Source: Bilabrum cf. latius
Taxonomy: Eukaryota
Assembly: GCA_965178125.1 (NCBI GenBank)
Contig: OZ237764.1
Span: 744,001 to 808,000, forward strand
Length of the DNA: 64,000 nucleotides
Direction of reading: 5' to 3'
The position numbers and the translations under genes were made by a program. Below the pieces are notes generated by a model. That model was not told where the DNA came from. It searched no databases and worked only from the letters and a program-made list of their open reading frames with translations. Shown piece by piece: positions 1 through 64,000 of the stretch (positions are counted from its first letter, which is position 1; each line of letters starts with the position of its first letter).

Positions 1-777
1 ACCGCAAAACATCTGGAAGAGGCCGATGGCACCGGGGTCCTGCCAGAGGGCCCATCCCCTTTCGATGAGCTGTCACGGCGTTTCCTCTTCATCCGCAAAG
101 ATTCCAAAGGCAGGAAAGGCCCAGGCGTAGGATTGCCGCAACGATCCAGTGGTGCGATATCCCTACTTCACGAGAACAGCTTGTCATCGGACCCTGGTCA
201 GGGTGGTGGTCCAGTGCCGGCAGAAATCGCAATCAACTCCGGCTCCGGCCCCGCCCCTTCCAGCACGTGGAGAGGCCGACACGGCCGCTCCTTCGATGCA
301 GCCAAGCTAGAGCAGGCGAGGCAGATCGAGCGGGTCTTCGCGCAGGACCAGGCAGCGAAAGCAAGGCGCGGACGAAAGGCCAAATCCATGGCTGGCAGGC
401 AGCGCGGCACGCAGCGCGGTAGAGGGCAGCGTGGGGTAGGTCACACGCCAGGGCAGGGGTTGCACAATGCAGCTGGTTCTAGCCGTAGTAGAGAGTTAGA
501 GCCCGTGAAACCGCAGCAGCTGCTGCCAGAGGCCATGCGGCACCGGATCATTAGGCACCTGGGTGACGCAGAAGGCCTCCCCTAGAAGGACAGGAAGCAA
601 GCGAGCAGATAGCGGGTTAGGATGGCGGGGGCAGTAGATTCGGAAACTCTGGGGAGATTCAAAGCGGCCGCTGCGGCGGATGCGCGGTTGGTGACTTCAC
701 CCCTCGCGCAGAGCGGGGCCCGCAGCTTGGCGTACGGCAGGGCAGTGCACGGAAGCATCATATCTGGCTCGGACTGA
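1..777 (+). CDS. 3' part of a hypothetical protein (5' end outside window), read through 2 TAG
   Basis: Frame 1 is open from base 1 apart from TAG at 583 and 610; first TAA/TGA is TGA 775-777. No family recognised. Confidence 0.5.
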
Positions 778-963
778 AAAAGTGTTTTGGCTCGGACCAA
801 ATGCGGATATTAGAGAGACGCCGCAATCCGATGCATCGAGACGCTTCCCTGGCGGGTCTGAAACAGGAATCCAACGGTAAGAAGCGTCCAAGTGCTCCGT
901 ATCCTGCTCACCAAGATCGGAAGCACGCCAGAGCATGCAAGTTATCACTCGTCACACCGTTCC

Positions 964-2799
964 TCAGCGCCCTCGGATGCCCTCGCACACGCCAGGCTGC
1001 TGAGCGAGTGCGTAGGCCTGCTGCACCACGTCATTGCGCGCGTCATCGAACCACGGGAAGCACAGCAGCACATCGCCCCTGCAGACGGCCGGCAGGTAGG
1101 CGTCAACCACGGTGCGGTTCGCGTCCCGTGGCACCGATCCCTGCATGAGGTTCACCGAGAACGACTCTGGCCAGGTAAAGTTGCTGGCGATGGGGGTGGT
1201 GAAAGGCGCGGGCTCGTTGTTGGTGAGCGGCGCAGAGACTCTCCGGTAGGCAAGGTCGCTTTCCTCGGGAGCCATGAGTATCCCAGGGACGGCCTTGTAC
1301 ACGAGCTCAAACACATCCGCGTCCAAGGCCCCGCCGCCGGGGCCAGTCACCGTTGAGTCGACGTAGAAGATGCTCAGGTTCTCGCCCCACCGCTTGCGGG
1401 CGTACTGGATCTTGCGGATCAGGTTGTCGGCCACCGCTTGCACGTCGCTGCGCCCGTCGGGCTTCAGCAGAAACTTCTGGTAGTACTTGAAAGGGGCCTA
1501 GTCAGGGGGCTGAGTGGACGAGTGGTTCGGGTTGATGGTGAGCACTTGCGGCCGGAGAGTGAGGCCTCCCCTGAGCCCCGCTCGCTGCATCATCGCGAAT
1601 GCCTCGTCGGCGATGCCATCCATCTCCGGGGCCAGGATGGGGAGCAAGTCTGGGCTGCCTATGTACGTGATGTCCTGAGGGTACTGCTGGCCCTCGATGC
1701 TCCAGATGATGATGCCCTGGCAGTCCAAACCGGACGTAGGCTGCTGCTGCTGCCGATGGGGCCTCCCAGAGGTGCACCGCTCGATGGAGCCGTTGACTTG
1801 CTGCAAGAACGCCTCCTGGAACGCCTTCACCCCCGCGGGGCTGGTCGTGTTGATGGACCCGGGGTCGGGGCCCACGGTCCATCCCCGTGGATTGGGGCAG
1901 TCTTCAGGTGCCAGCGACTTGCAGGAGCACGAGGCGCCGCATTTGCCGGCAGGGAACAGCGTGCCGATGGGTCGGCGGTCCTTCCAGTCCAGTGTCTCGG
2001 GGTGCTTGCGACGGAAATCCGAATAGGTGCTCGCAGCGAGGTCGGTGAGAACGTCGAACGGCCGGCGATTCCTGTCCGTCGCGTTGGGGCCGCTGCCCGC
2101 CCCGAATCTCAGCTCTAATTCGGCGACTGCACTCGCTCCAGGCTCCACGATCGAGTGCCTCAGGGCGATGTGCCAGCCGTCGGGCTCGTAGAACCCAAGT
2201 GTGGTGTTCGGCGGATTTGACGGGAGCTGGACTGCCACGGCGGCATCACCCCAGTCAGCGACAACAGATTTTGGCATTTCATCTGTAGGGAACAGGCTCC
2301 ACTGGTTTCGGAACGATCCGCTAGGGATCTCGTTGTAGTCCTGCGGAACGATCTTGCCGAATGGCCATCTTCCGCCATTGTACACGCCTCTTGGACCTTG
2401 CGCAATCACGAGGCCCATGAAATCAACGATTGTATTGTTTGTATATGATATAAACGTTGACTTTGCCTTCAGGATGTTGCCACTCATCTGGCTATCGTCC
2501 CATTCAACCGTCCATTTGCCCCAATGGTACTAGCTGGTGAAGTGTTTCCCATTTGCCGAGACACTCCAATTGCATTTGTGGGCCCAAACATTGTCAGGGT
2601 GCGATGGAATCCCGGAAGAATTGGTAATCCACCGAAATCCGTTCAATGAGGGCATGCCGGCGATGGAAAATGGGTCTCGGCTGCCATGAACGGTAATGGT
2701 CAGGTTGCCGGTAGTTGTGTTGAAAGAGGCCTCCACATCTGGGTTCGAGGCCAAGCTTAGTGTTGAATACGCGAAAAGGATCGATATAAGCTGCTTCAT
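964..2799 (-). CDS. Secreted hypothetical protein (~611 aa), possibly glycoside-hydrolase-like
   Basis: ORFs 2530-3072, 1498-2487 and 964-1443 share one frame and are separated only by TAG (2530, 1498). Signal peptide MKQLISILFAYSTLSLA from ATG 2799; ends TGA 964-966. Confidence 0.7.
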
Positions 2800-3071
2800 G
2801 CGCACGAATATGATCACAAATGTTTTGGCTAGATCCATGCCTCGCGACGAACCCCAAGAACGAATGTTCGCCCAACTCCGGTTGCCGAAGTTGGGGTACA
2901 AACTTAGAGCTTTGCGCCGCAATTGTAACTCAACAAGCAATTCATAATTGTGGCTATTCCAAGAGCCACTGGGCCCGCATGTGAGGGAAACGGGACTAAC
3001 AAAAACAGCGTGGAAGCCTGCCAGCCGCACCTGCCAGTAAACAACCCACACTACACTGCCAGTGATCAACA

Positions 3072-6213: not shown

Positions 6214-8511
6214 ATGGAGCCGCGCGCGCGGCGGCAAGTTGGTTCCGGAATTTCAACCACGGAAGAAGACATTGCACAGTTTACCCGACCAGCTCCAGAG
6301 ATTGTAATGGCTTCGCTGGAATCAAAGTCGAATGGGCTACCCTTGTTTGAGCTGGCCGAGTCGGCCGGGTCAAGCATGTGGGGCCCGAAGTCGCACGATT
6401 CGGACCTCATGTTCTTGCCTCTAGCTGCAAAGCCGCAAGGATACAGCGACCAAGGAACCATCTGTGAGAATTATTATCGTTACTCCCAGATTTGAGCGTT
6501 TAGTGGTAGCCTGCGTGATTGTATAGGCGGAAGGCCTCCTGAATTGCTAAGTCCTCCTCCAGTGCCCCGCACATATGCATCGCAGCAAAGTTCACCGTGG
6601 ATGACAAGGGCTTCTCCATGGCAACTGCTGCACTCATTTCTAAGTCATAGTCCAAGAGTGAGCTATTTTGGGGTGCACTGTCGCGGCTCTTGCCCTGGAC
6701 CGCGGTATAGGTGATTCAAGCCCGACGGCTTCTTTGCTGCGCAATAGCCAGTCCCGGTTTCCGATGCTTCCAATCCTAAACGCCCGATGGACCCACGACC
6801 ACTCATTGCAGCCGCAAAAGTCACGTACGAGCAAGGCTACCGCCGCGTTCGAGGCCGCGAGAAGGGCGACAAGATCAAGGAGACGATCGGCGTACAGCGC
6901 CACGCCACAGGGGGCCCCAGAAGGGGCGACAAGATCAACCGAAGGCGCCGCATCGCGAGGAACGAGAGCGGCCGCGTCGCCGTGGTGCGCCAGCCCTCCA
7001 TCCGCGTGGACCACGACACGTGGACCCAGCTGGACCGGAGGACCCTGGACGAGCTGGAGGCTAGGTCCGTGGCAACCCCTGCCGGCGAGGACTACGCATG
7101 GGTGGGCTCGCTCAAGCAGTACGCCCAGAGGAGGTTCAGCAGCCTGCAGCCTGCCCTGGGCCGTGTCGTGCTCCCGCACGCGCACGTGAGCTCGTACCTC
7201 AAGCAGAGCTCGGTGGAGGCCCGGGATGATCCGATCATGCGGCGGGCAGTGGAGGCGAGGGAGCAGGCGGAGGAGGACTTCGGGGCTGGCAAGATCAAGG
7301 CAGCGGATTTCAAGAAGCACCCCACCGTGTTTGCCTCAGAGGCGGCCATGTCGGCCATCATGTCGGCCAGGCACAGCTTCATCCCTTGGGACGTGGTGTT
7401 CACCTGCTACAAGGACCTCATCTTCATCGAGAGGAGAGACCCCCACGCGGCACGGGTGCCCACAGTGTGCGAGTCTGCCTCTAGGCCACCGGCAGAGGAC
7501 GCTGCCATCCCAGGGAACCAGACGGAGCTAGGCCTAGAGAGCCTCCTCGTGGAGTCTCTCTTCCAGCAGCAGAGCCTCTACGGGGACAAGCAGCAGAAGA
7601 TCAAGACGGCCAAGGTGCCTGCCGGGAGCAGCAGTGGGGCGGCCACCGGCGGGGCGGCATCGTCTGCCGCATCCTCCTCTGCATCGGGCGCGACCGCCAC
7701 CAAGATCAAGGGGCTAGAGGGCCCGCCGGTGGACAAGGACCCCTTCGCCGCCGCCGTGCCGCCGCAGGCACCCGCCACGCACACCTCCTTCCGTTACAGG
7801 GTGTTCGACCTGGGCGCCGACGACGACGGGCAGCCCATCCGAGTGCTGTCTCGCGGGCGCGTGCATGCAGTGCACTGCAAGGACCCCAAGAAGGCCGCGG
7901 TGAAGCCGGTCAACCTGCACGCCCTGCTGGACTGGGAGCGCCCAGGGAGGGGCAAGGTGGAGAGGCACAACGACTGGCGCAAGACCACCGAGCCCGCGCA
8001 GCTCATGCTGAGCATGCTGGGAGAGAACAAGGCCCAGGTAGGCCGCTGGCTGGCCAACGCAATGCTGGGCGGGGTGGAGGAGCTGAGGCTGGCAGTGGCA
8101 CTGCGGACCAACAAGGGCAGCACTGTGGGTCACGAGGTGCGGTTCTGCTAGAGCACGAGTGTCGAGCAGGTGGCCAAAGACGTGCTCATCTCCAGGGAAC
8201 AGATGTGGGGCATGGTGCAGTGGGCTGTGGCAGCCATCCGCACGTATGTGCGTCTCGCTCGCGCCGCCGCCGGCGTGGAGCACGAGGCCCTCGACAGCAA
8301 CGTCTACTCGTTCGTGCTGATGAGACACCCGAACGAGCCCACCGTGACCATCTACAGGACGGACGGCACGACTGGAGGGGAGCTCTTCGGCGGGGCGGAC
8401 GACGCTGCCTTCCTGGAGGAGGACATCCCGGAGGAGGATGAGGACGAGGGCGAGGACGGTGAGGATGACGCGCTTGCCGGGCTGGATGATCTGCTGGATG
8501 ATGATATGTAA
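6214..8511 (+). CDS. EIF3D: Eukaryotic translation initiation factor 3 subunit D (multi-exon; start ATG 6214 or 6307, 5' exons approximate)
   Basis: N-terminal WGP, RDDPIM, AIMSARHSFIPWDVV, TVCES, GRWLANAMLGGVEELRL, acidic tail. In-frame TAG at 6648 and 8149 (HEVRFC*STS aligns with animal HVILGTQQF). Ends TAA 8509-8511. Confidence 0.85.
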
Positions 8512-21532: not shown

Positions 21533-23678
21533 TCAGCCTTTCTTTCCATTCATACTCGAAGTACTCGGCCATCTGGATCTAGATTCCAGATGTCGCACCC
21601 CTGCTTTTTCGCTCGGTTTCTGCCCTAGCCATGGCGTCCAATACCCGCTGTGGTTGTCTGGATTCGACTCAGGCACCGTTGGGCCGTGTCCATCAGGCAG
21701 CGACTGATCGATGTACTCGTCCAGCCGAGCCAGCATGCGCTGGGCCACCTCGGGGTACTGAAGGATCACGTCCTTCTCCTAGTATGGGTCACTCGTCACA
21801 TCGAATAGGTACGTGATCCGAGCGTCGGGCCCCAGCCGCACGAACCCATCCGACCCTACCGGAGAGGGCGACGAGAAGGCAGGCAGCTGACCCCGCCGCT
21901 CCGTACGCCCCCTGACCTCCTGTACCAGCCTATGGCCCCACTCGCCCCATCGGATGGACCTCTCCCGGCGAAGCAGATCCCAGCTGTCGAGCTGCCGCAG
22001 TGCGTTGCACTCCCGATCCACTCGGGCCGCCAGGTTCGCCGTGTTCTCCGCGCCGTCACTCGTCACGCGCTCCACTAGCGCGGCGGAGCACTCTCTGAAC
22101 TCGCGCAGAGCCTCCGGGCCCGTGGGAATAGAGGGGTCTGGGTAGCGCCTCTGGCCACCGTGATGCACACTCGTCACACCACAATCAACGGCAGCGTCAG
22201 CCGAGAACGGGTCGGGCCCCAGACCCACCTCGGAGGGAGGCACGCTGGACGAGGAACCGGGAGGATACCACCCGTCCGGCTCCCCAGGATCGATCAGAAG
22301 CTTCCACTGCCTGGTGCTGGTACCGGCATCGGGGGCAGGATCACCACTCCCCAAGTGACCACCACTCTCCAACTGCACCCACACCAGCCCGGCGTACCCG
22401 CAGCAGCCACGCGGGCCGGGTGTGGCCAGCGGGTCGTAGTTCAGCAGCGTTTCATTCCGGACGGCGTCCCGGCTGTTCGCGAGCCCGGTCACGGCAGACC
22501 ACACCCTAGACGGTGCGGCACCGTCCAGCGGAAAACCGGAACTCCTGTTCCCCGCCCCGGCCGCCTCCACTGCCAGCTGGAAGAGATCAACTGCGTGCAT
22601 GAGGGCGCCCGTCTCCTGCCCCCGCGCCCTGGCAGGCACTCCGGCGCCCCACACGAAGGCCAGGCCGTCTCCCCACAGGGTGTGCTTGGAGCCCCGCTGT
22701 GGGTAGTTGGAGCCACCGATGGCCGTGTTGGTCGCGTTTGGGCCTGTGGGCGGGGTGGGGGCTGGGTTCTCGTTGGTGAAGATGACGAGCGTGTCGTTCA
22801 AGTACCCCGCCTCCTCGAGCGCACTCGTCACGTTGGCGAGCTGCTCGTCTACGGCCCGGACCATGCCTGAGAAAGCCCTGCGGTTCTCGTCCGGGATGCT
22901 TGCGTTGGGGTAGCCCGCAGGAGGCTCCTGCGGCGAGTGGTTGTCCTGGCAGGCGTAGTACATGAACAGGGGCTTGTCGCTTCCGCTGGACTTGTGCGCC
23001 TAGATCACCTCTCTTGCACCCCTGACGTACGTGAATGCACTGTACTCGCCGGTGACAGGGGCGGGGCTGGTCCAGTTGCGGGCGTCGATTCCCTTCATCT
23101 TGCCTTGACCAGTGACGCGAGTGTAGTAATCTTCCTCTCCCGCCAGAAAATACGCAGGCGCGTAGTCAAAGCTCCTTCCGGGGGGCGTCATGCCCCAGTG
23201 AGACGACCCGATGTGCATCTTGCCGATAGCTGCCGTTGCGTATCCCGCCTGCTACATTGCGACTGACAGGAGCGTCTCGTTCAGGTATAGCCCGAAGACC
23301 TCATTCATGTTGTAAGTGTGATGGAGCAAACCATATCGGATCGGATATCGCGATGTAAGAAAGCTGGTGCGGGACGGGCTACACCTGCGAAACGAGTCGA
23401 ACAGCTGCATGGTCCAGACCAACGAGCATGTGCGCTCCACACTAGCGCACGAGCCACTCCAAGCGGTCGAACTGTGCCTCTTACACTGGTTGGACGTAGT
23501 AGTTTGACAAGCGAACCGCTTCTCCCGCGAATTTGTCAATCGTGGGCGTCTGGATGTCTGGCGATCCCAAGTACGAAAGGTCTGCTGTGCCGGTGTCATC
23601 CGTGACAAAGAATAAAACATGCGGGGACTTTCTGGCTAGACTAGTAGCTGCAAGAAAAGCGATTGCGGATACAAGCAT
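21533..23678 (-). CDS. Arylsulfatase (formylglycine-dependent, ARSB-like)
   Basis: Signal peptide and PHVLFFVTDD. Intron 23385-23484 restores YVQPVCSPSR (CxPSR motif); also AGYATAAIGKMH and KPLFMY. In-frame TAG at 23252, 23000, 21779; ends TGA 21533-21535. Confidence 0.9.
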
Positions 23679-23845
23679 AAGCAGCGCAGTGTTGTCTGCG
23701 CGATCTTCTGTGCCGAAGTGCACAAAGGCTTTGTGCAGAATTACGACTCCGAACGAGACACACTGGTGGGGATCTACTAGTGTATAGGCCTACCACTTGC
23801 TTGCTCGCAACCATTAAACTCATCCACGATCCCCTGATACTGTCC

Positions 23846-35985: not shown

Positions 35986-36088
35986 TGGGTCCCTGCTATC
36001 AATCTGCCAAACCGCAAAGTTGCACCGCTTGTGCGGCTCCGAGTTTAGCTCCAAGACGCGGACAAAATTGCATTCAGCTCCTGGACTG

Positions 36089-36724
36089 ATGGCACTCCTC
36101 CACTTGGCGACAGTTCCGCTGGCTATAGCAGGCGTGTGGTACCTCGGCAGGGGGGCTGAAGCGTCTGGGAAGCTCATGTATGTCGTCTCGCGAGGCGCAC
36201 TCGAGGTGAAGGGATACGATTGGGAGCACAGCAGGGTGGATTGGAAGTCTATCAAGTTCGGTGTGCGACCTGCAGTATTGTTAGCTTCATTAGGGGTAGC
36301 GAAGGTGGCAGACACCTCGTTACGGCGATACTTGATAGCTCCTACACGGCTAATCAATGCCCAGTTAGCGGAACGAGTGTGGCGGGACGCCTTTTTGCAG
36401 CGGAAGCTTACATTAAGGGAAGCTTGGAAGAGTCTTGGGCCAAGCGCGACGAATCCATCCATCATGCAGTTTGTGCGGCGGCATGGAGCCAGGCTTGCGA
36501 TTGGGGGGGTCTCCATCATTTGCGGTGGGATTTTCTTCTCCTTGACCTTGCCGTACCTGGAGGCCCCGTTTGTAGTGAAAGGCAAGCCAGTCATTGACAT
36601 GCAACGGGCTAGGAATAGGCAATTCAAGCGAGAACGCAACGAGCGGATATTGGAAGAGGGCAAGGAGCAGGGCGGATACAAGAAGGAGCACGCCATGTCG
36701 AGCCGAGTTGGCCCGTCTGGGTGA
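36089..36724 (+). CDS. Small hypothetical membrane protein (~211 aa)
   Basis: Open frame with three hydrophobic segments, divergent from TRMT2A; ends TGA 36722-36724. The only model here without a TAG. Confidence 0.55.
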   Translation: MALLHLATVPLAIAGVWYLGRGAEASGKLMYVVSRGALEVKGYDWEHSRVDWKSIKFGVRPAVLLASLGVAKVADTSLRRYLIAPTRLINAQLAERVWRDAFLQRKLTLREAWKSLGPSATNPSIMQFVRRHGARLAIGGVSIICGGIFFSLTLPYLEAPFVVKGKPVIDMQRARNRQFKRERNERILEEGKEQGGYKKEHAMSSRVGPSG

Positions 36725-36881
36725 CTGGAATCCTTTGGTGAATGCATGTTGAACAGATCCCAGTGCGACGGAAATGTAGAGTTAGACATAACGACTGGAG
36801 CGATCGGCCGCCCTTTCGTACACGTACATGCAACCTAGAACCGGTCCAACGGAGACCCGCGCCACTGCCCCTGTTCACTGT

Positions 36882-39800
36882 TCACTCCACGTCTGGGAGA
36901 CTCGACCTGCACACAGGGCACTCTTGCTTGACGCCCATCCACTCCCTGAGGCACTCCGCGTGAAAGAGGTGGTGACACGGAGTCACCATGTACTAGCCCC
37001 TCTGCAGCGGCAGCTCCATTGGCTCGAGGCACACAACGCACGTGGGCTGGGAGGACTCGCCCCCGCCGGCATCCCCCGCACCAGCACTCGCACCCGCGTC
37101 AGCACTTGCACCGGCCGCGCTGGAAGGTCCTGCCCCCGAAGCCCCGTCTCTTGCACCCTCCCGCCCTGCATTGGCCCTCTGTCTCCCCAGCCGCATGGAG
37201 GCCCCCCCCGGCGCGCCCCCCTCCTCCACGTCACCGTGCCCGCCCTGCCTCGCACCCCCACCCACGCCTCCAGGCCGCACAGCCGCACCCCCGTTGGCGC
37301 CCCCATCGGTCGCAAGGGCGGGCATGGCCTCGGCTCTCTCGGACTCCCCTGCGCGGTTGGGCTCGGGCAGCCGCGAATACACCTGCCTGCCTCCGGGGCC
37401 GCGACGCACAGCTGCGTCACCGTTGCACCAACGCCGCAGGTATCGCGACCCGCGGCGCCACACGCGGCGACCCACCCGCATAGCCCCATAGAACGACCCA
37501 ACCCAGCCAGTGTACCTCACCCCATTCGGGTCACGCCCGAACACTGCGGCGCGCCGCTCCTGCTGCTGGCCCTGTCCCTGACCCTGACCCTCGCCCCCTT
37601 CCTGCTGCTAATCTCCGCCCTCACCCTCAGCCTAGCCATCATCGCCACCTCCCTACTGCTACCCGTTGGCACCGCCCGCCCCACCACCGACTGCACCCGC
37701 GGGCGCTCCCTCGGCATCGGACTCGCTGCCCGCGGCGTCCTCGTCCACAAGCACCCGGCCGTTCTCGTCCACCTCGATCTCGCGGAAGAAATCGTACTTC
37801 CGGGGCAGGCAAATCGAGGGAACAAAGAAACGAGGCCCCAGGAACTGCTACAACAGCACCACCGTGCACTGCAGCAGCATCCATACCGAGATGGAGACAG
37901 CAAGGTGCTGGTTGTAGGCACCCACCACAATCTGTGTTACGAAGTTTACCGGGCAGCCGTAGAAGTACACCACCGGCAGCATACGAGTGAGGGTGATAGT
38001 GACAACCTGATGCGTCGGCAGCACTTCCTTCTTGTTGCTGGCCGCCTGGTGCACGATCTGTGGCACCCAGAAGCTGGAGGTGAGCACAACGAGGATGGTG
38101 ATGCCGTCCCCGGTGTAGTAGATCACCAGCATGCCCGCTATTAGGGCAGCGTAGAACTGAGCGTACACCACCCCGAGTTCTCGCCTGACGTTGTCCCAAC
38201 CTCCAGCAAATGCCTCCGGCCTCTGCGCCTTGAGGAGCGTAAGCAGGAGCCGCATCTCTAGAATGCTGAACAGCACCAGCTGGAAGAAGGCAAGGATCGC
38301 GAATGGACCCAGGAGACTGCCCCCGATCACGGAGAAAGTGATGTGGATCAGGGTAAGGAAGGCGTCCTGCAGGGCTTGGATCCCCACGCTCATCATGCTG
38401 GAGCCCTCCGCCACTCTGGAGTGCATCATGGCGCTGTACAGGTGCGCGAGGGTCAGCCCCACCTGCACCACCACAGCCACGGTGGAGATCATCGCATAGG
38501 CCTGCGAGTCGCGGGAGAGTCGATCCACATTGATCAATACGGCCGCGGTGGTTATGTTTGCGCTGTAGTTGCAGTTGGGGGAGCCCACTGTTCCCTGGAA
38601 CACGTCGACCTGGGGGCCGGTGAAGCCCTTGCGGCCCGAGATGCGCTCAAAGCCGATGGACCCGTGGAGGGAGTGCATCACGGCACGGGCTCGGGCCCTG
38701 GCCGCGGTAAGGGCCTTTTCTGCCTGTTCCCTGGTGACTGCCACCCCATCACCTTGTTCCTTGGAGGAACCGGGGTCGTTCTCCCCCTCCAGAAGTCGAG
38801 ACGAAACCGCAGGGCGCAGAGAGGCCGCCCTGGCCAAAGTCGCGTCCAGCGATCCGATTCCGACCGCAATCTTGTTGTCATCCCCTGATCCTGCCTCCGT
38901 CCCGGCTCCTGCAGCTCCCATCGGCCCAGGTCCCGAGATGATGGAGGCTGATGCCATGCCTTTGCCGGCCGGCCGGAAGGACAGGGGCACCGATTTTGAG
39001 GCAGGCGCACTCTTAGAGCTCGAGGGACCACCACTCTCAGGGAACAGGACCTCGTCAGGGAACACGCGCGGGGCTCCCTGGGGCACGACGCCCCGCTCCC
39101 CCCTGACCCCTTCCGACGTCGCCTGCAGCATGGCCAGGACGCTCACTGCCACGTGTGCCGAGCCGCGGCGTAGGGAGCCAGCTCCCCTGGCAGAGGACGA
39201 AGCGGCGCGGGCAACACCGGCGGCAAAGTGGTGGACCATGCTCCTCGCGTGTGCCGTCCACGCCGCAGAGTCCAGCCAGCTGGCTCCAGAGTCGAGGGGG
39301 AGGGGAATGTCCGGTGCAAGCGTGGAATCGGCCATGAGCCGCCTGCCCCTACCCGGACTCGAACCTGCGCCTGCCCCCTCTTCAATCGCTTGCATGGCCC
39401 TAATCCTATGCTCGGCCAGGTACACTTCGTCTATCAGGATGGGCATGGCCTGTGCCCGCACCACCATCTGGCAGCGGGACCCCACCTCGGGGGCATTGAG
39501 GGTCCATTCGGGGTGCTCACTGGCGTCGAAATCAGAAGCGGAGGAGGAGGACTGGAGAACTCGCCCGTGAGCAGGACCCGCCACCGTGAGACCGTCCATC
39601 TGTGTGCACTCGTCACATGGAGAGTGCCTACCCTCGAGGTGGTGGGCGCGGCCCCCTTTCGGGTCGTGGTCGAAGCCGCCCTTGGGCTGCATCTGCATCA
39701 GGTGCTGGCCCAGGATCGCATCCACACTGACATCTTGCGGATTCTCGACATCGTCATCATGATCATCATCGCGAGTGCTTGCATCGCTGCCAGTCCCGCC

Positions 39801-40538
39801 ATCACTGCCAGTCGTGTCCTAGCCACTACCCCCGTTACTACTGGCACCCTCCCTACCTAACTTTGAGTCTTCCTTGAGGCGCTTTTTCATGTCGCCGGCG
39901 GGTCTGTTCTTGGCGCGGATCAGCAGCTCGAACCTGTGTGGGGCGGAGGCCATCACCAGCTCGCCAGTGGCAGGCATGTAGGTACCTATCATGCGCCGCG
40001 TGGCGATTCCTGGCAGGCGGATGGGATCCAAAGGTGAAAAATGGCCATCTACGACATCTGCAACCAATTCAAGGCCGCCATGTACCTGCAAAACACCCGG
40101 CTGGGAGGTCGGAAACGACTGCACCGAAATGAGCGATTGGCCGTGGCTGGGGGGGATCCCAAGCTGGTGCTTCGGAGCAGACCCATTGAATAACACCATT
40201 GCTGAAATATTCCACGGCGAGTCCTTTCGATACAACCCCATGCCAAAATCGCCTTTATACAGCCCGAAAAAATGGCCAGTTATGTTGTTGTCGTGCGTAA
40301 GCAGCCCCCGGGCTCGATTCAACTCCTCCTCTACCCAAGGCGCACCTCCCCCGGTGTACTCGCCCGGCACAACACTTGTATCGCCCTCCTCACCATCCTT
40401 CTTGTCGGATTTACGGAGGCCAAGCGCCTCCAGCACCCCGTCATCCGTCAGAAACATACTAACGATAAAAAACGAGAAGATAGCTGCGACAAAGTACTAC
40501 CTTCGTCTCTGCTGGTTATCATCATCATCTAGTTGCAT
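36882..40538 (-). CDS. Transmembrane RING-H2 E3 ubiquitin ligase, Tul1/Dsc1/FLY1-like (~1218 aa)
   Basis: Multi-TM block, SFWVPQI, LL*QFLGPRFFVP, RING CVVC...TPCHHLFHAECL..W...CPVCR. 8 TAG (40497, 39819, 37848, 37659, 37653, 37632, 37608, 36993); ends TGA 36882-36884. Confidence 0.9.
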
Positions 40539-40958
40539 AATTTTGTACCGATAATTCGATACTCGGTGAGGTGAAATGCTTTTTTTGCGGTCAGGCGCGG
40601 GCTTTTCCTGGTCAGCAAAATATGAAGATAAAGCCAAATTGTGGCGTGTGCGGGACCCTTCGGCCCAGGCGGCCGTTGATTGGATGGGATTACCTAGGGC
40701 CTGACCGTATTCTTAATGGGAGTACGGAACACTTGATGGCGAATCCTCGCCCCTCGTGAGGTCCCCCCAGGCTCGGGAACGGCCCGTGGTCCTGGCTTGA
40801 TTGAGACGTTTGGTTGCAACCGCCTTGCGGCTTTGAAGCTGCAGGTCCAGCGATACTACATCCGCCCTGGGTTTCTGTTGAGCCTGTAATTCCCCCAGTC
40901 TGAGCTGCTTCTAAACTTTACCATAGCGTCTGCTCCGCCAGGTGACACCGTCTTTGAC

Positions 40959-41826
40959 ATGGAGCTTCCTGGCTTCGCACCCCACGTCGTAGCTGCCGGG
41001 CTGGCTCCAGCTACGTCAAGCAACTTTTTGCGACGATTATGGCGATAGGACATCGATGTAGATAGCTCAGTTTATTAGATTGAATAGTTGCTCCGACTAA
41101 ACCCGGATCGAGTGTGAGAGAAGCCTGCCAGAGACGCACTTTGCGAACTGCAGAGTCCTAACATTGCTTGTTTGAGTGATCATGCGACTCCATTGGCATT
41201 TATTGATGAGCTTGTATTCCGTATCGTTGCGCAGATACAAGCTAACGTAGCATCAAAAGCAGACCAGGAACCAGTGGTCTCGCGAGGACCCTGGGTTCAC
41301 CGCTATCGTGTGCGCGCTAACGGCCGGAACGGCCATTGCTTGGGGATTTGCATGTGGGGGCGGAATTTGGGGTGCGCTGCGCAGCTTGCTCGTGCTGGTT
41401 GCTGCGTTCACCGTCGGCGGGGCGCTGGTTGCAACGTTGCACTGGCAGGTGACGAACAAATGCCTGCGGGCGCCGACCCAGCCGCATGCAGTGGAGCAGG
41501 TTGTGGAGTGGGGCTTTTGCTTCGACGTGCACGCCAACTCTTGGGTCCCCATGGCGGCCATCGGGCTGGTGGGGCACTTGCTCCTGCTGCCACTCACCCT
41601 GAGGCCGGGGCTGCTCCCCGTTCTGGTGGCCAACTCAGTCATGGCCGTGGCGGCCGGTGCGTATGTGCATGTTACATTCAGGGGGTTCTCGATCCTGCCA
41701 TTTTTGGATCGCGTGAATTCGTACCTGTATCCGCTGGTGGCGGTAGCGGCTGTGTGGGCGCTCAGCATCGCTCTGGGCTGGAATGCGAGCTTCTTGTTGC
41801 GGTGGATTCTGGTTGGAATTGCGTAA
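40959..41826 (+). CDS. UNC50: UNC-50/Gmh1 family Golgi membrane protein
   Basis: FLRRLWR, KQTRNQWSREDPGF, VEWGFCFDVHANS; intron 41114-41234. TAG at 41046, 41076, 41085, 41248; ends TAA 41824-41826. Confidence 0.9.
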
Positions 41827-42005
41827 TGTAAAGGGAATGAGCTCATACCTGCGCCAGTATTCCGCTGCTTTTGCCAGCCGTGGGAGCAATGCAGCTTCGC
41901 CGCAACCCCCGCACCGAACCCAAGATGAAGGTTCGTATCATCCGGAGCCGAATCGGAGAGACAATTCTCCGTTCACAATTCACTCCGCTGGCAGCCAAGA
42001 GGAGA

Positions 42006-45000
42006 ATGAGTGGATCCAACAAAGTCGGGCTGAATAGTATTCACTAGTTACATGGTGATATTGAGGGTCAGCTTCCCGTTTTGGACTTACATGTGAAGGG
42101 CCTCACGGTTCTGGGACGGAGTGCGGCGGTTGCGGAGGAAGACGTGAACGCGTTTTCTGTCTTGTGTCAATGCAGGTGTGACGCATCATAGCCTGTAAAA
42201 CTACTTGATAATGTTTCAGCTACCTTTCCTAGCGGGGAACTCACGCTGGTAAGCTCTCAGATGACGTCCGCATGCCGGTTGACAAGCCACGTCGCTCCTC
42301 GAGCTTTGCATCGGAATATCTTATTGCGCACACCCTGATACCGACTCGCAGGTGATTGCGCCTCCAGGAGCAGGTAAAACTACTCTACTTCGCACATTGT
42401 CCGGAGCCATGGAGATGAAACCGACATCGGAGCTCGAACAAGCCATGACCAACCCACCGTCCGCTCCTGTAGCCTTCGGCGAGTACACCCTCGGCGGCAA
42501 GTCGGCCCTGGAGCTCGGTGGCTCCCGTGTAAGCAGACTTGTCAGCCGTGTAGTTCAAGATGATGAACACTACGGGCTTATCACCGTGCGGGAAACGGCA
42601 GAGCTTGCCGTGCGCCTGAGCAATCCACCGGAATCACCGGAGCAGAAGACGGCGGCCGGAGTGGACCCTGCCGAAACACCAGCGCAGGAAGCTGCCAGGA
42701 AGGCTGCACTTTTGCTTGAAGAGCTCGGTATTGATAATGTTGCCGATACTGTTCTCGGGAATGAGACCGTTCGTGGCGTCAGCGGTGGCGAGGTGAGAGT
42801 GTCGCCTTGTCCGTTCCACAGCAAACATTGTTGCTTCGACTTCAAGCGAAGGCGTCCCCATCCCAACTAACTTAATTTCATGATTCATTTCTCTGTCTAG
42901 TTGCGCAGGCGAAGCGCGTCACGATCATGGAGGCTCTTGCGACCCCCTTAAGAGCCCTGGTGCTGGACGACGCCTCGAACGGCCTGGACGGTGCTCGCAC
43001 GAAGGCAATCGTCGCAAAGCTGAAGGAATTTGCTCGGGAGCTGCGGATTCCCATCGTGATGGCCCTGCAGCAGCCATCAAGGGAGGTGTTCGACCTCTTC
43101 CACCGCATCGTGCTCATGCGCCACGGCCGCGTGCTCTACGAGGGCCCGCGGGACGAGGCTGGGGCCTTCTTGGCCTCGATCGGCCTGGCGCCGCCCTCTC
43201 ACCAGTCAGTCCCCGACTGGCTGCTGGAGGTGGCATCCAGCCCCTCTTTGTTCTCTCCCTCTGTGGCCGTGCTGCAGGACGGGGCCCGCCCCGATGGTCT
43301 CGAGCGGTTCAAGTTCGCGCCGACGCTCGACGGGTCTCGGACCGGGGACCCTGCAGATTCCAAGGCGAGCGGCAAGGGAGGGGCGGCCCGCGCCTCTCCC
43401 ACCGAGGGCAAGGTGGACGCAGGATCGGATCAGTCCACCAGTGGAGTGGCCGTGCACCTGGACGAGGAGGGCGGCCTGGAAGAGGAGCTGGCCTCTGCCG
43501 CCTCGGGGCGCGGGGAGCTGCCCGGGTTCGACCCCCTGGCGGCGGTGCAGGCGCTCCCCGCCCTCACCACGCGGGGCATCTCTGAGCACTTCTATGCCAA
43601 GTGGGCCCCTGCCAGGCCAGCGGCGGGTCGTCCTGCGGGCGGGAGGATCCCCGGGGTCCGGCTGGCGGCAGCGGCCCCCGTGCAGCATCCCAAGGAGCTG
43701 GCCTGGCCCAAGAGCCAGGCCACGGACCTCCTCTTCGGGGAGGGATACGCGGCTGATTCGTGCACTCAGATGGGTCTCCTGCTATGGAGAGACACGATGC
43801 TCATGCTCAGGGACACGGAGTTCCTGGCCACGCACCTCGTGAACTCGGTCATCGTGGCGCTGCTGCTGGGCGGCGTCTTCTACCAGCTGGGACAGGAGGA
43901 CTTCCAGCAGTACGTGTCGCTGATCTTCTTCGCGTCGCTGTTCCTTGGTATGGGCAATTTCAGTTCACTTCCGGTTACTATTTAGTACCGGGCTGTGGCG
44001 GACAAGCAGGTGCTGGCGGGCATGTACCACCCGACGCTGTACGCTCTGTCACAGGCGCTCGTCAGCATCCCGATCGCCGTCCTGGAGACGCTCATCTTCA
44101 TCTCGATCGTGTACTGGATGTGCGGGTTTGCCAATGATGTCGGTCGTTTCCTCATCATGGCGGCCATGTCTCTCTCGATCAACCTGTTCATGGCGGCGTA
44201 CTTCCGGTCCGTCGCGTGGATCAGCGGCAATGCGGGATTCGCTGCGGCACAGGGCATGGCCATCGGCCCCTTCGCGCTACTAATGGTTACCAATGGCTTC
44301 GTGGTGACCCGCGAGAACCTGTCGGATGCCCTCTGGTGGTTCAGCTACGTCAACCCGCTGGCATACGGCATCAGGGGACTGGTGGTGAACGAGTTCTCGG
44401 ATCCCAGCTACGACAACTAGATCCCGATCGTGGAGGAGTCCGTCCTACCCAACGGCACGCAGGTCACCAGCATCCTGGGCACGAGGCGCATCGGCGACGC
44501 CTACCTCGAGTCGTATGACATGCCCACGGAGGACTGGAGCTTCTGGATCACGCTGGGCTTCCTGGTGGTGCTCGGCGAGATGCTGCTCTGCGTGGCGGGA
44601 GGCACCACTGCCTACAGCTGCATCCGGACGTACGGATCAAGGGGCACTGCCCGGGAGGAGAACACCAAGGAGGAGGAAAAGGCCGCGCGGAAGATCTCCA
44701 AGAGAGTCATTGACGGGGTTGCATCAGGCAGGCTCACCCCCGAGATCGAGATGGCGAGGGCAAGGAGCTCCCCCTCGGAGGAAGCTGCCCGCGGGAAGGC
44801 CAGCGGCGCATCGGCTGGTTCGACCCACGGCAGCTCCATGGTGTGGGACAACGTCAAGTACACTGTCAAGCTGACTGACGGCTCTGACAAGACTCTCCTG
44901 CACGGCATCTCGGGCTGGGCCAAGCCGGGCCAGATCACTGCGCTGCTGGGCGAGTCTGGTGCGGGCAAGAGCACGCTGCTGGACTGCCTGGCGGGCCGCA

Positions 45001-46709
45001 AGAACCAGGGCAAGCTCGAGGGCTCGATCCTGCTGGACGGCAAGCCCGCCACTCGGGATGCCATCAACCTCGTGGCATCGTACGTGGAGCAGTTCGACCA
45101 CCACGTGCCGCAGCAGACCGTCAGGGAGGCCCTCGAGTTCTCGGCAGACCTGCGGCTCCCCGCGGGCACCCCTGCCAGTGAGCGAGCCAAGGTGGTCGAA
45201 CGCGTGCTGGACCTGCTGGAGCTGACCAGCATCCAGAACTCGAGGATCGGCCTGCCCGGGGCCAGCGGCATCAGCGCGGGCGAGAGAAAACGGCTGTCGA
45301 TCGCGGTGGAGCTCGTGTCCCAGCCGAGGATCATCTTCCTGGACGAGCCCACGACCGGGCTGTCTAGCCTGCAGGCACTGGGGCTCATGAGGGCTTTGAG
45401 GAGGATCGCCGATGCGGGGCACTCGATCGTGGCCACGGTGCACCAGCCCAGTGCCTCCATCTTCTTTTAGATGGACAGGCTGCTGCTGCTGCGGAGGGGC
45501 GGCGCCACTGTGTATTTTGGCCCCCTGGGTGACAAGGGCTCTGCTCTGATCAAATACATGGAGAGCTGCAAGGGGGTGAGGCCGCTGCCGCTGGGCACCA
45601 ACCCGGCCGACTGGATGCTCGAGGTCGTGGGCGAGGCGGGGAGGGCCAGCCAGGGCAAGGGAGGGGAGGCGGGGGACATCGAGAGCAAGGGAGAGACCGT
45701 CCCGGATCTAGCCGTTCAGTTCGATGGATCGCAGGCCGCCAACGTGATGAAGGCGGGCCTGGCCGCCCTGAGGTCGGGTGAGGGGCTGAGCGCCGCCCCC
45801 GCCGCGCCCGAGCACCCCAGCTGGCTGCAAGAGTTTGGCGTCGTCATGAGCCGAACAGCCACGGTGTCGTGGCGGGACGTTGACTACAACACTTCGAGGA
45901 CGATCGCAGTGCCCTTTTTGGCCACCATGTTTGGGCTGACGTTCCTGCAGCTGGACGACGTGGACCAGGCGGGGGTGTTCTCCGTCATCGGGGCGTCCTT
46001 CATGGGAGCGACTTTCCTGGCCATCGTGCTGCTCAACCTGTCCATCCCGCCGCTGATGACGGTGAGGCCTTCTCTATACCGCGAGCTGGACGCGGGTTTC
46101 TTCACGCCCGAGTCGTGGGCGCTTGCAACAACCCTCATGGAGGTGCCGTGGGTGGCATGCCTCTCTGCTGCGTTCTCCGCCATCCTCTACTTTATGGTGG
46201 GACTGGACCCGGCCAACTACGGGGAGTTCTACGCCACTCTGCTGACCCTGTCGCTGGCCATGACCATGATGGGGCACGCCGTAGCCATGGGAAGCGGCTC
46301 TTAGCAGACAGCTACTGCCATCGCTGGGTCTAGTTCCTCCATTATGTTCCTCTTCGGGGGCTTCTTGGTGACTGGGCCCGACATGGACCCGGGGTGGAAA
46401 TGGCTGCACTACATCGTGCCCATCAGGTACGGACTAGCCGGGCTCGTTACACCAGCCTTCCACTGTCCGGAGGAGGGGCTGGAAGGGCCCGACATGCCCG
46501 CGGGGGAGCGAGGCCCTTGCTCGACTGTGACGATTGTGAGGGATGGGCAGCTGCAGGCGGGCGTGGTCAAGTCCGACTACATCGATAACTTCATGGGGTT
46601 CCGGTTCGATGACATCGGGTTCTACACTGGGATGCTGGTGGGGTACTTTGTGCTGTTCGCGGCGCTCAAGATGCTGCTGCTCCGATTCGTGAGGCACCAG
46701 AGCAGGTGA
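42006..46709 (+). CDS. Full-size ABCG (PDR-type) transporter, NBD-TMD-NBD-TMD
   Basis: PPGAGKTT, VSGGE-AKRV, ALQQPS, GESGAGKST, ISAGERKR, LDEPTTG, HQPS; introns 42249-42351 and 42793-42908. TAG at 42045, 42189, 43983, 44418, 45468, 46302; ends TGA 46707-46709. Confidence 0.92.
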
Positions 46710-59625: not shown

Positions 59626-62377
59626 TTAGCGGCTTGGCTGGGACCCTCTCGCTATGCGCAGCACGACCGGCACAAGGGGGGGCAAGTCCACCACCAAGCG
59701 ACCCGTTGCAGGGCCTGCTGCGCATCCTCCCGACGATATATTTCCATAAGACACACCTTGGCCAATGTTAGCGTCGCACTGGCGCCACTCGATCAAATCG
59801 AATGCGCTGCTTGCCGCAACGGACGACACACCAGGTCCAACAAACACATTCACGGACACTGCGGCAGCGCGCAGATTCTGTAGCACCAGCGTCGGGCCGG
59901 CAGCTGGCCCTTGCCTTGGTGCCTGCAATGCCCCAACGATCCCAGCCGGTCTCCCCTCGGTTGCACCGCAGTACACCCCGAATGCGGGGCTGGGCGCATC
60001 TGCAAGCGAGTCATCTCCCGCTGCCAGAGCACACAGCAAAGTCTGATTGTCTCCCTGGAGAGCATTAGCAGCCGACCGGTCCAGCAGCCCTCCCGGCGCT
60101 GCCATGGCTCTCGATCCGCCATCCATGTCAATCTGGCCGTACGAAGCACCCTACTGCAGCCATGCAAGGGCAGAGTCATTCCGCGGTCGGCCCTGCGAGT
60201 CGTACCGAAGCGCTGCTGAATCTGGGGCAAGCACGTCCGATCCGTTGCCGAACACCAGCAGCTCATGGCTTGACTCACTCTCTCCTGCTGCCGAATCCAA
60301 TGTGCCTGCCCACTGCTGCATCGCCTGCATCGCCGCATCGCTCACGTGCGACGAGCCAGGTACCACCAGCAGCCTGGTGTCCCTCGGAATGCCCCAAGCA
60401 CCCCGCGCACTCAGGTCAGACTCGGCCACCCACCCCAACGGATACCCGCGCAGGTGGAAAAACACTGCTTGCGCTACAACTGCCGTGCGAGACGTGGCCA
60501 GCTCATCCGAGATGAACGAAGACTCGGAGTACAAAATCCTCACAGGCCTGACGGTCCTCTGCCCGTGTCCCATCGCATCCATGCCAAGCGACGAGATCTC
60601 GATCCCGGCCCTCTAATACCCGTCCATAGCTCCTGGCAGCATGGCCATCGACCACGTGGTGTGAGTCAGCGGGTCAAGCAGAGCCGCAGGCGGGCTGTTG
60701 CGCATGCACACATCCTGCTGCAGGGCTCCCCTGGCCCACACCCAGGCCTCTGCCCCTGCGAGCCCCTGCGATGCCCCGAACCACAGCGCGCCCCTCACGT
60801 AAGATGGCGTGATCTCGCCGTGTGCCCCCCTGTATCGAGAGGTGGAGATGTCGTGCCATTCCGTGTCCAGGAGAGGCTTGTTAGGCGCAATGCTGCGACT
60901 CAGGGTGTAGCCCATGGCGGTGCTGACCCAGTCCACCGCCCAGTAGCTCGCGTTCCAGGCCCACTGTTCCCTGGGCAGGATCAGGTGCACCCCGGCATCG
61001 TCGGCGGGCAAGAATCTAGAGTCCATGGCAGACACGTCCATGGCCCGAGTGAGCGCCACGCGGTCGATGCCGAAGCGGGAGGGGGCAGCGAAGGCCAGCT
61101 GGTTCTGGACCTTTACCATGCAGGACGGAGGGGGCAGCGAGGGAGCACTACCGTGTGCTGCACCTGCCAGATCATCTGCATAGGCGGCCGCAGCCTTCAT
61201 GGCCGTGAACCACTTCGTGACCCTGTCGTTGTTGAACCGGGCCCAGTCCGACCAGCGGCCCGCCACTCCCGGCCTGTTGCTGGGGTCTACCCCAGTGCCC
61301 AGAGCTGGGGGCGGGTACGGGGGCACCTGGGCGGGAATGTCTTTAAAATAGGCGAAGCTTGTGTTCCAGGCATCGTTCATGGCCTAAATGATGCCATTGT
61401 ACTTGCGATCCATGGCCGATCTGAACTTGTCGAACGTGAAAGGGGACGCTGTGGAGGTGAACCCCGGCTCATTGGCAAGAAGGTAGGGGCGGAACTGGCG
61501 ACCAACCGCTGCAGCAGCCTGTCGCTCGATGGACACGCTGATGTTGTACACCAGCTGCACCGCGGGAACTGCTCCCGGGTTGTCAATGTCGATCCCGATG
61601 AAGTGCTGCTTCCACCCCGGGCCGGTTACATTGTTAATGCCAGGGTACTTTGCCTCGAACCAGGGGGGCAGGTGATCTGCCAGCGAAAAGAAACGCGCGG
61701 GAAGGTCACCGACGGCTCCGTGCACCTCCATCTCTGCCTGGTAGCGGGAAGCCCCTTCAGGGTCAGGGGCTGGCCCTCGCGGCACGAGCTGCCACGGTGC
61801 CGTCTTGACGTCTGCGAGCACAGAACGCATTCCCTGAGCCGTGCCGTCAGCGCAGGACGGGCCCTGGTTGTACCCCGTGAGAAATAGTGGGGACATTACT
61901 GTCGTGGTGTTCGACTGCCGCAGACCACTGGCAACTGACCAGAAGACCCCTCCCAGCTGGACGATGCCACCTCTCGAGCCGTTGGCCGGCGGTACCGTAA
62001 AGCGCGAAGACGGCTGTTCCATGGCGATCTCACCCGCACGAATGGCGCTCTCAATCAAATACAGTGTCTATTTTGTTTCGTTCTTGGGAAGCGACACCGC
62101 AAGGGCCTGGTCCCTCTGTGGATCCACGGACTTTGGCCCAAACCACTACTCGAATGCAGCCTGTGACGCACTCACGTGGGCAGAATCGTATGTTATGTAC
62201 TAACAAAAGAGATTTGCAACTAAGAGAGTCGACTCCTCAAAGCCTGAGTCAATAGCACGCGCCTACAATTGCTATGGCGCTCTACACTTCGGGTACTTCG
62301 CATGAACTCCCCTGCTTGCATGCAAGCAATACCACTGGCAGCGCTATTATTATGCTACTAGGAATTACGCGACCCAT
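59626..62377 (-). CDS. Secreted clan GH-A glycoside hydrolase, GH42 beta-galactosidase-like; apparent frameshift near 62270
   Basis: LANEP acid/base motif, KY..I*AMNDAWNTSF, DWARFN, DTEWH. TAG at 60151, 60613, 61384, 62068, 62146, 62200, 62263; ends TAA 59626-59628. Signal peptide from ATG 62377 is in an adjacent frame. Confidence 0.75.
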
Positions 62378-62539
62378 ACTACCAATTTGACGTATCTGAG
62401 AGGTGCCGAAGGGCTGAATGTCCATTCGGCCGAATCTTCATCTTGAACGATTGCGGCACACAAACTTTGGCTGGGCATACAACGAAACGGCTAAACATGT
62501 ATTCCCACAAATTCCACTGCAGACCCTGTAAAACGAGCA

Positions 62540-63329
62540 TCATGAGCCCCCACTCGCCGCACCAGCCCCGGTCGCTGCCCCGGACCCCTTCTTGCCCTTG
62601 CTCTGCTTGACGTTGAGCTCTCTCGCCACCTTGTCCATGAACTCCCTCACCTTTGTAGCGCTCGCCTTCTCATCGACGTCCGCAGAGCGCACGGCAGCTC
62701 GCAGGGCGCCCTCCATGGCCGCAGCCCCGCCGTCCAGCGCCTCGAACTTCCCGATCAGCTCGTCCAGGTCGGACGGCTGCACGTCGCGGCCAATGGCACT
62801 CTTCACAATAACCAAGGACTTCTCCTAGTCCAACTCAGCGTCCAACACGCCAGCGTACTTTGCCTTCAGCACAAGCTCCTCTACCTCATCGGTGTCCTTC
62901 AGATCCAAGTCCTTGCTTAGCTGATCGTAAGATAGCTCGCGGCTAGATTGTGCCATCGTCACAATGGAAAGTTGTTTAAGTTTCGATATGTGCTTGTCGG
63001 TTAGGTCGGGCATTTCTCGTTCCTTGGCTGCGATGGCGGTGCACGCATGATCCGCACTCGCAACATTTGCTACACTTCTTGCGCACTCACTGAACAAATG
63101 TTCCGAATTTCTTACCCTTATAATCTGAATATGTTCCAAAAGCAAACAATTCTAACGCCTTTTTCCACTTGCTCGTAACGACGTGCTTCATTCCATCGTG
63201 GTCAAGAAGCTCGCCAAACACCAGCACCTTTGGATCGGCAAGAGCCTACCGGATTGCCCCATCGATACCGCCTGCCGATGATGCTGAATCAAACAACACG
63301 AAATACTTTTCTAAGGCACCCGCTGACAT
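62540..63329 (-). CDS. COPS7: COP9 signalosome subunit 7 (PCI domain)
   Basis: VFGELL, LELFAFGTYSDY, KLKQLSIVTMA, LD*EK...IGRDV; intron 63028-63115. TAG at 63246 and 62825; ends TGA 62540-62542. Confidence 0.88.
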
Positions 63330-63591
63330 GATATGCTTGAAATGGAATCGTTCTTACCGAGAATGCGGAACCTATCTAGGCCCGTGAAATGCGCGGCGCC
63401 TGACCATCGGTGGTACTGCTGTTTATTCCACAAGAAACCCACCACTGGCCACTACAATCACCAAGAATCGTATGGTTTATGAGTCAATACGGGTTTAAGA
63501 TTACATCTTGAAGTGCTGTGTCGCTAGATCACCCGCTTGGGCAGAGCGAGCGGGTGTCCCAAGTTTTGTTAGCTTTGCAACCCAGCCTGAC

Positions 63592-64000
63592 ATGCTGGTG
63601 CAACGAATGGCCTTTGTGCTATTATTATTAGTGTGTATGCGGGATACAGAATCATCGTAGCGATAGCAGCTGCAGGTTTTGGTCGAAGGCTGGTCATCGT
63701 ACTTGCATAGCTACGCAATTGTAGGCAAGTCGCTCACTGTGGGTCTCTTGCAGCAAAGGGGTGCTTCCGTCCGGTTCAGAGAAGTAGGCCAAGGGCCACA
63801 CACGACACTTTCGCCACATTAGAATGTCTCCGCGCTTCCTACTCTAGAGGAAGCCCAATTCGATTCAGTTCCGACAGCGTGTTTTCCAGATGAGTGCACT
63901 CGCGGACCGAGCGCTGGGAGCGTTTTCCCTATCAAATTGACAGGAAACGAATCAAATACTAAATCGTCTTAGAATGGAGAGATCGTACGATGGGAGCCAC
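63592..64000 (+). CDS. 5' part of a putative glycosyltransferase with signal anchor (runs off window; absent from ORF track)
   Basis: MLVQRMAFVLLLLVC...VLVEGWSSYLHSYAIV; frame open to the window end apart from TAG at 63658, 63664, 63820, 63970. The VEGW..HSYAIV motif recalls bacterial GT4-like N-termini (from memory). Confidence 0.55.

Follow-up and report, generated by a model that had tools for sequence, protein, structure and literature searches.

The DNA analyzed here is a 64-kb stretch of contig OZ237764.1, which we refer to as the window (64,000 nucleotides in its whole length). It is intron-poor, has a G+C content of ~60%, and encodes ordinary eukaryotic nuclear proteins, including a membrane-bound E3 ubiquitin ligase of the Dsc/Tul1 type, subunit 7 of the COP9 signalosome (CSN7), subunit D of the translation initiation factor eIF3 (eIF3d), an UNC-50 family protein, an ABCG transporter, a sulfatase, and a multidomain inositol 5-phosphatase. 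The subject of this report is the codon TAG, which occurs in frame in all of these genes and which we read as a sense codon, most likely for Gln, in a nuclear genetic code that retains UAA and UGA as stops. We put the probability of this reading, the data for which are 64 kb of nuclear DNA, at roughly 0.86.

The first line of evidence is the distribution of the three stop triplets in the genes of the window. Measured to the stop from the first ATG, or from the exon start where one was observed, the 21 gene models comprise 14,408 codons and hold 63 in-frame TAG, with at least one after the start in every model, or ~4.4 per 1000 codons. TAA and TGA are both absent from these frames, while the density of TAA plus TGA in the +1 and +2 frames (0.0203 per codon) would predict ~293. 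Counted from stop to stop, the 21 frames contain 78 TAG, or 79 when a 22nd, overlapping frame (4231-5736) is included, which agrees with the ~80 reported in the initial annotation, and the upstream exons of ABCG and UNC-50 hold five additional TAG, which bring the 63 to 68. The four long frames highlighted in that annotation (47609-54709, 36882-40538, 26908-31344, and 32593-35985) have eight TAG each from stop to stop. Reading TAG as sense yields six open reading frames (ORFs) of at least 1000 amino acids (2382, 1501, 1478, 1277, 1276, and 1067), compared with none under the standard code, none with TAA as sense—which lengthened no long ORF—and one (1034 amino acids) with TGA as sense. The long TGA-sense frames (725-1034 amino acids, with 6-39 TGA each) are chance frames that lie off-frame or antisense to real genes, because their codon scores are negative. 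The two remaining frames listed with TGA as sense belong to the real 5-phosphatase gene as exons, and gain either nothing or a short low-scoring tail.

Because ORF-based counts are partly circular, a test independent of ORFs was made, in which each stop triplet, in any of the six frames, was scored for whether the 60 codons on each side of it were both coding-like in their codon usage. This was the case for 25 of 905 TAG, none of 463 TAA, and none of 1685 TGA. When training and testing were done on opposite halves of the window, the numbers were 17/620 and 9/285 for TAG versus 0/1428 and 0/720 for TAA and TGA (Fisher p = 1.3e-9 and 1.1e-5). TAG is also found within nine Pfam matches (zf-RING, DUF2921, WW, PCI, Exo_endo_phos2, Sulfatase, ABC2_membrane, eIF-3_zeta, and UNC-50). 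The initial annotation had placed TAG in seven folded domains, which we could confirm for RING, WW, PCI, 5-phosphatase, and sulfatase but not for RRM, which has no Pfam match at E<=0.001, nor for the nucleotide-binding domain of the ABC transporter, whose ABC_tran match holds no TAG, the nearest being 38 residues after the match. That TAG alone occurs inside coding-like sequence and conserved domains upholds the proposal of a genome-wide reassignment rather than pseudogenization. A change of UAG from stop to sense, with UAA and UGA still acting as stops, is thus supported as the sole reading compatible with the data, together with the genome-wide scope claimed for it.

Table 1. Genes and gene models of the window, with their in-frame TAG codons and stops
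Feature	Position	Strand	Exons, domains, and matches	In-frame TAG	Stop
Dsc/Tul1-type membrane E3 ligase	36882..40712	-	DUF2921 (2.5e-52), zf-RING_2 (RING-H2)	8	TGA
COP9 signalosome subunit 7 (PCI), last exon	62540..63187	-	PDB CSN7a/7b/Arabidopsis CSN7 (E 1e-14)	62825-62827	TGA
eIF3 subunit D	6715..8511	+	eIF-3_zeta (2e-47)	8149-8151	TAA
UNC-50 family	40959..41826	+	Two exons, 40959-41113 and 41235-41826; Pfam 6.5e-50	41046, 41076, 41085, 41248	TAA
Full-size ABCG/PDR transporter	41889..46709	+	Exons to 42248, 42352-42792, and 42909-46709; ABC2_membrane, ABC_tran; PDB CDR1/Pdr5 (1e-111)	42045, 42189, 43983, 44418, 45468, 46302	TGA
Multidomain protein, 2366 codons	47561..54709	+	2 WW, cNMP-binding, inositol 5-phosphatase, RGS; PDB SHIP1/synaptojanin	8, e.g., 47795 (in WW) and 52466 (in phosphatase)	TGA
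Arylsulfatase B-like sulfatase	21533..23740	-	Pfam Sulfatase; PDB 1fsu (8e-41)	23252, 23000, 21779; another upstream of first ATG	TGA
TRM2-type tRNA (uracil-5) methyltransferase, long N-terminal extension	32593..37098	-	tRNA_U5-meth_tr, Methyltransf_31	7 after ATG	TGA
ORF, 1459 codons	26908..31344	-	No Pfam match	8	TAA
ORF, 1017 codons	55091..58294	+	No Pfam match	5 after first ATG	TGA
ORF	59626..62346	-	No Pfam match	3 after first ATG, 9 stop to stop	TAA
Gene model	1-777	+		1-2	
Gene model	964-3078	-		1-2	
PX/EH	3072-5736	-	Pfam	1-2	
Duplicate pair	12371-13477 and 19732-20838	+		1-2 each	
Gene models	16032-17606 and 17702-18586	+		1-2 each	
GDSL lipase	23846-24922	-	Pfam	1-2	
LRR	24958-26124	+	Pfam	1-2	
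COMM-like gene	58912-59532	+		1-2	

The second line of evidence concerns the stops. We obtained the same count of gene ends as the initial annotation (15 TGA, 6 TAA, and no TAG), but as evidence against termination on TAG the count is circular: once TAG is taken as sense in defining the frames, TGA and TAA are the only ends they can have. A comparison with the C-termini of homologues shows that TGA and TAA fit conserved ends. The TGA of the Dsc E3 ligase lies eight residues past the last Cys of the RING domain, and homologues end after seven to eight residues in 32 of 34 cases. In UNC-50, position 213 of the 221 in the profile is reached 11 residues before the TAA, and the TAA end of eIF3d is identical to the C terminus of a 97% identical orthologue. 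The TGA end of CSN7 coincides with the end of P0109, which gives weaker support since this protein, at 99% identity, probably represents a gene predicted in the same organism, and the sulfatase extends 30 residues beyond the end of human ARSB. Among the C-termini checked against homologues (Dsc E3, eIF3d, UNC-50, and sulfatase), none falls directly after a TAG.

These ends bear on the possibility that the code is ambiguous, with UAG specifying Gln inside genes yet ending some of them depending on position or context. Codes in which the same codon is sense internally and stop at gene ends are found in Condylostoma and karyorelict ciliates, and for UAA in Blastocrithidia. The circularity of the end count leaves room for such a code in the window, and two small genes are in its favor: in 16032-17606 and 17702-18586 the last TAG precedes the TGA by 10 and 28 codons, respectively, and could be the real stop. 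Nonetheless, we give an ambiguous code only a slim chance. Apart from the conserved ends described above, to which CSN7 adds less, the last TAG is at least 36 codons from the end in 19 of 21 models. One of them, at 36993..36995 on the minus strand, corresponds to residue 1240 of the E3 ligase, 36 codons before its TGA and inside the zf-RING_2 match (residues 1224-1269), and it must be read through because a stop there would truncate the RING domain.

The initial annotation assigned no amino acid to TAG, and the evidence presented here points to Gln. The best-conserved sites are the most telling. At the TAG at 37848..37850 (minus strand), just before a GPRFF motif in the DUF2921 domain of the E3 ligase, 33 of 34 homologues have Gln and one has His. 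At the CSN7 TAG (62825), 150 representatives show 119 Gln, 8 Pro, 7 His, 6 Thr, 3 Ser, 3 Glu, 2 Ala, and 2 gaps, and the site is Gln in both human CSN7b and Arabidopsis CSN7. The eIF3d TAG (8149) corresponds to Gln in human, in Nasonia, and in the 97% identical orthologue P0108, a protein of 584 amino acids that was the sole database match; an Atlas look-up confirmed eIF3d. In addition, we re-read the same DNA with TAG as different residues and compared the whole-protein Pfam scores, whose differences amount to a likelihood ratio for the TAG columns emitting a given residue (Table 2). Gln is ahead by at least 13 bits in the summed scores, and it is the top residue of five in six of nine families. 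For DUF2921 a short fixed context was also used, in which Gln scores 190.0 versus 181.3-184.0 for 14 other residues (Asp, Lys, Glu, Arg, Asn, Gly, His, Ser, Thr, Ala, Trp, Tyr, Met, and Leu), a margin of at least 6 bits; because scores from the two contexts are not comparable (187.5 versus 190.0 for Gln), Gln, Glu, Lys, Leu, and Tyr were re-scored in the short one. Ser scores below Gln for PCI (33.5 versus 35.6), DUF2921 (182.7 versus 190.0), and WW (60.3 versus 62.5).

Table 2. Whole-protein Pfam scores (bits) with TAG read as each of five residues
Family	Gln	Glu	Lys	Leu	Tyr
Sulfatase	95.5	93.5	96.0	91.2	91.7
Exo_endo_phos2	196.9	196.4	195.4	193.4	193.9
PCI	35.6	33.3	32.6	30.0	30.7
eIF-3_zeta	165.3	163.5	163.6	162.1	162.1
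ABC2_membrane	256.1	255.9	254.9	252.7	253.7
DUF2921	187.5	181.1	181.4	178.7	179.5
zf-RING_2	43.0	43.2	43.1	43.1	43.3
UNC-50	171.4	171.0	171.3	169.2	171.8
WW	62.5	59.2	62.3	57.8	55.2
Sum of nine families	1213.8	1197.1	1200.6	1178.2	1181.9

Several observations count against Gln, and most of them concern the possibility that UAG encodes another residue, most plausibly Glu or Lys, whose codons GAG and AAG are one base away. The sulfatase TAG at 21779 aligns to Glu in both of the two PDB sulfatases that reach the site, and at the phosphatase site SHIP1 has Glu and synaptojanin Gln. Among 47 aligned ABCG homologues, one TAG site has 19 Leu, 6 Gln, and 2 Glu, and another has 11 Glu—the commonest residue there—7 Ser, and 3 Gln, although these are the best-scoring 47 of 73 homologues at ~30% identity, too distant to settle the residue. 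A TAG in an acidic low-complexity linker faces Glu in 25 of 34 homologues in an alignment that is unreliable. For the Sulfatase family Lys scores slightly higher than Gln and is the top residue, and at the WW site both Gly (65.9) and Asn (62.9) score above Gln (62.5). Finally, all nine families were scored for the five residues of Table 2 only, and Cys, Phe, Ile, Pro, and Val were scored in none. Against this, Glu occurs in none of the 34 and in 3 of the 150 homologues at the two best-conserved sites, versus 33 and 119 for Gln, the 97% identical eIF3d has Gln, and Lys and Glu are 13.2 and 16.7 bits under Gln in the sums. Invariant sites favor Gln, and Gln and Glu exchange readily. Another residue, Glu or Lys included, is therefore a very unlikely meaning, and provided that TAG is sense we hold with high confidence that it is Gln. 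If TAG encodes Gln, it makes up ~11% of Gln codons. Recoding of the pyrrolysine or selenocysteine type was considered as well, and it was ruled out by the presence of TAG in 21 of 21 genes and at ordinary Gln positions. The E3 ligase gene also contains a Gly/Gln/Glu-rich linker (37608-37661, minus strand) with four TAG in 18 codons, interleaved with CAG and CAA, a pattern that looks like TAG/CAG exchange in a Gln-rich tract.

The third line of evidence comes from contigs of four public sequencing runs, which were aligned to positions 36800-56700. The intron at 41114-41234 and the interval 42249-42351 are skipped by contigs of runs X5, X7, and X8, and the interval 42793-42908 by contigs of X5 and X8. 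All three are bounded by GT..AG, which documents three introns of 103-121 nucleotides in runs from two studies. A single X5 contig has all three joints and contains eight TAG (41046, 41076, 41085, 41248, 42045, 42189, 43983, and 44418) without any difference from the window. The four genes contain 26 TAG, of which 19 are on listed X5 pieces with no differences and four more on pieces of X7 or X6; the TAG at 36993, 48128, and 48257 are without cover among the listed contig pieces, and there are no variants at TAG sites among the listed differences. The intron-shaped joints and a ~25-fold drop in depth between genes lead us to infer that these contigs derive from RNA, so that TAG appears unchanged in transcripts. 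On the other side, an automated guess has X5 as possibly DNA, and library types are not on record. The TAG are unchanged on contigs joined across three GT..AG introns, which makes mRNA editing, a hidden intron, or an assembly error an unlikely explanation. The more general idea that the TAG are untranslated—as pseudogene lesions, assembly errors, small introns, or edited sites—has no positive support beyond the indirect identification of the runs as RNA, and we regard it as next to impossible, since one stop triplet only is affected and in all 21 genes (with TAA and TGA at zero), identical TAG occur in independently assembled contigs of several runs, intron-less ones included, and homologue alignments continue through TAG within domains.

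The same runs revealed two other features. Part of the ABCG gene (45268-45636) exists in X5 and X7 in a second, diverged version with 28 differences over 369 nucleotides (~92% identical), in which the TAG at 45468 is kept, and which is either a paralogue or from a related strain or relative. Furthermore, the stretch 47561-54709 is nearly complete in runs under three organism labels and partly present (0.29 of words) under a fourth, in four studies, so that the organism may be carried along in other cultures, as a companion or a contaminant.

Protein databases contain relatives of the CSN7 gene. A gene call that is 88% identical (P0110) ends on the residue directly before the TAG, and the 99% identical P0109 begins seven residues after it, and the two are the CSN7 parts on either side of the TAG. 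At least one diverged relative would thus have an in-frame stop at this codon, as judged from a protein call rather than from DNA. A 57% identical relative (P0111) has Gln at the TAG position; of two metagenome scans for this relative, the first returned nothing and the second only a 40% identical contig of 1.3 kb. The practical consequence is that under the standard code essentially all genes will be annotated in pieces or cut short, the P0109 and P0110 fragments being examples already in the database.

Other genes of the window are listed in Table 1, including three long ORFs that belong to no known family (26908-31344, 55091-58294, and 59626-62346) and eleven further gene models in all with one or two TAG each after the start. 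Named homologues of the window proteins (25-37% identity) are spread over Amoebozoa, fungi, oomycetes, and brown and green algae. Removal of the two ABCG introns joins, in frame, the P-loop of the first ATP-binding domain to its ABC signature. Exon 1 of UNC-50 alone (51 amino acids, three TAG) has no Pfam match under any code. A distance of 60-100 nucleotides separates the stop of UNC-50 (41824-41826) from the first ABCG ATGs (41889 and 41925), and one contig spans both genes, which means either that the two genes are very tightly packed or that their transcripts overlap. The single-exon protein at 47561-54709 has an unusual architecture that combines two WW domains with cyclic nucleotide–binding, inositol 5-phosphatase, and RGS domains. 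In the region 3072-5736 (minus strand), an EH frame (4231-5736) and a PX frame (3072-5099) overlap in different frames and probably belong to a single gene that is interrupted by an intron or changes frame. A segmental duplication (11941-13848 and 19303-21209) is 98.8% identical over 1909 nucleotides (20 mismatches and 2 gaps), and in both copies there is a frame of 368 codons, of unknown family, in which codons 133 and 242 are TAG. In the gene at 16032-17606 (plus strand), an imperfect 8-residue peptide unit rich in Gly, Asp, and Thr is repeated over a long stretch. Between 8000 and 16000 the G+C content goes down to 0.52-0.55 and there are few convincing genes; a 330-residue frame at 9926-10918 has neither a Pfam match nor a TAG.

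By analogy with such codes in other organisms, the mechanism for UAG as Gln would be decoding by a tRNA-Gln with anticodon CUA, together with an eRF1 in which recognition of UAG would be lost or weakened and that of UAA and UGA kept. We infer this mechanism only, because no tRNA gene was found by a tRNA scan of the 64-kb window, where an Rfam scan gave no match, and eRF1 is not among the genes there.

How does this code compare with those already known? UAA and UAG nearly always change meaning jointly, and uncoupled cases are rare. The latter are natural experiments on how eRF1 comes to ignore one of two codons that differ in the third base. The code of the window is of a known, rare kind, and the lineage is probably a new user of it. 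Codes in which UAA and UAG both specify Gln (translation table 6) are used by many ciliates, hexamitid diplomonads, some ulvophytes, oxymonads, and an aphelid. They have UAG as Gln in common with the window, where however TAA is not sense, as seen from the absence of coding flanks around all 463 TAA, and terminates UNC-50 and eIF3d at their conserved C-termini. The window is translated correctly with NCBI translation table 15 (TAG as Gln), which is a table and not a lineage: it was first attributed to Blepharisma, an attribution called erroneous in PMC5304391, and it has been predicted for some phages (PMC9523058), which have no relation to a eukaryotic nucleus.

Other uncoupled codes with UAG as sense and UAA still a stop are described for the rhizarian exLh, in which UAG is Leu, and for Scotinosphaera, in which it is Ser (PMC11687900). 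Neither residue fits the window, since Leu is 35.6 bits under Gln over the nine families and Ser is under Gln for PCI, DUF2921, and WW. The very same variant, with UAG alone as Gln, is described in Protocruzia tuzeti and in two phyllopharyngean ciliate lineages (McGowan et al. 2024; PMC11687900), which shows that it has originated repeatedly. There is no named ciliate among the named homologues of the window proteins. GC-rich DNA with introns of 103-121 nucleotides bounded by GT..AG is also unlike typical ciliate macronuclear DNA.

A full-text literature search, with subscription journals and supplements outside its scope, turned up no description of such a code from stramenopiles, bicosoecids, or any other GC-rich protist, nor the bicosoecid claim mentioned in the initial annotation, and Iotanema spirale was the only non-ciliate case of UAG alone as Gln that it found. 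We consider the odds to be even that the window represents an independent, unreported origin of uncoupled UAG as Gln, in a GC-rich eukaryote that is neither a ciliate nor a fornicate, with the code common to diverged relatives. If this is true, the turnover of TAG and CAG, the tRNA(CUA), and the changes in eRF1 would be traceable among close relatives. Iotanema, a member of Fornicata, is among the closest parallels. In its nuclear code UAG is Gln while UAA and UGA are stops, 104 of 119 gene ends are UAA and 15 are UGA, and eRF1 carries T32G (Panek et al. 2017; PMC5304391). In both, UAG alone is sense and aligns with Gln, and UAA and UGA terminate; Iotanema is also a non-ciliate. The difference is in stop usage, which is dominated by UAA in Iotanema and by TGA (15, versus 6 TAA) in the 60% G+C DNA of the window, and this opposite usage argues against the window being from Iotanema, to which none of the other data point. 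While Iotanema is known from a transcriptome, a GC-rich lineage for which genomic contigs, spliced transcripts, and close relatives are at hand would provide an independent case, in the opposite regime of base composition and with TGA rather than TAA as the main stop.

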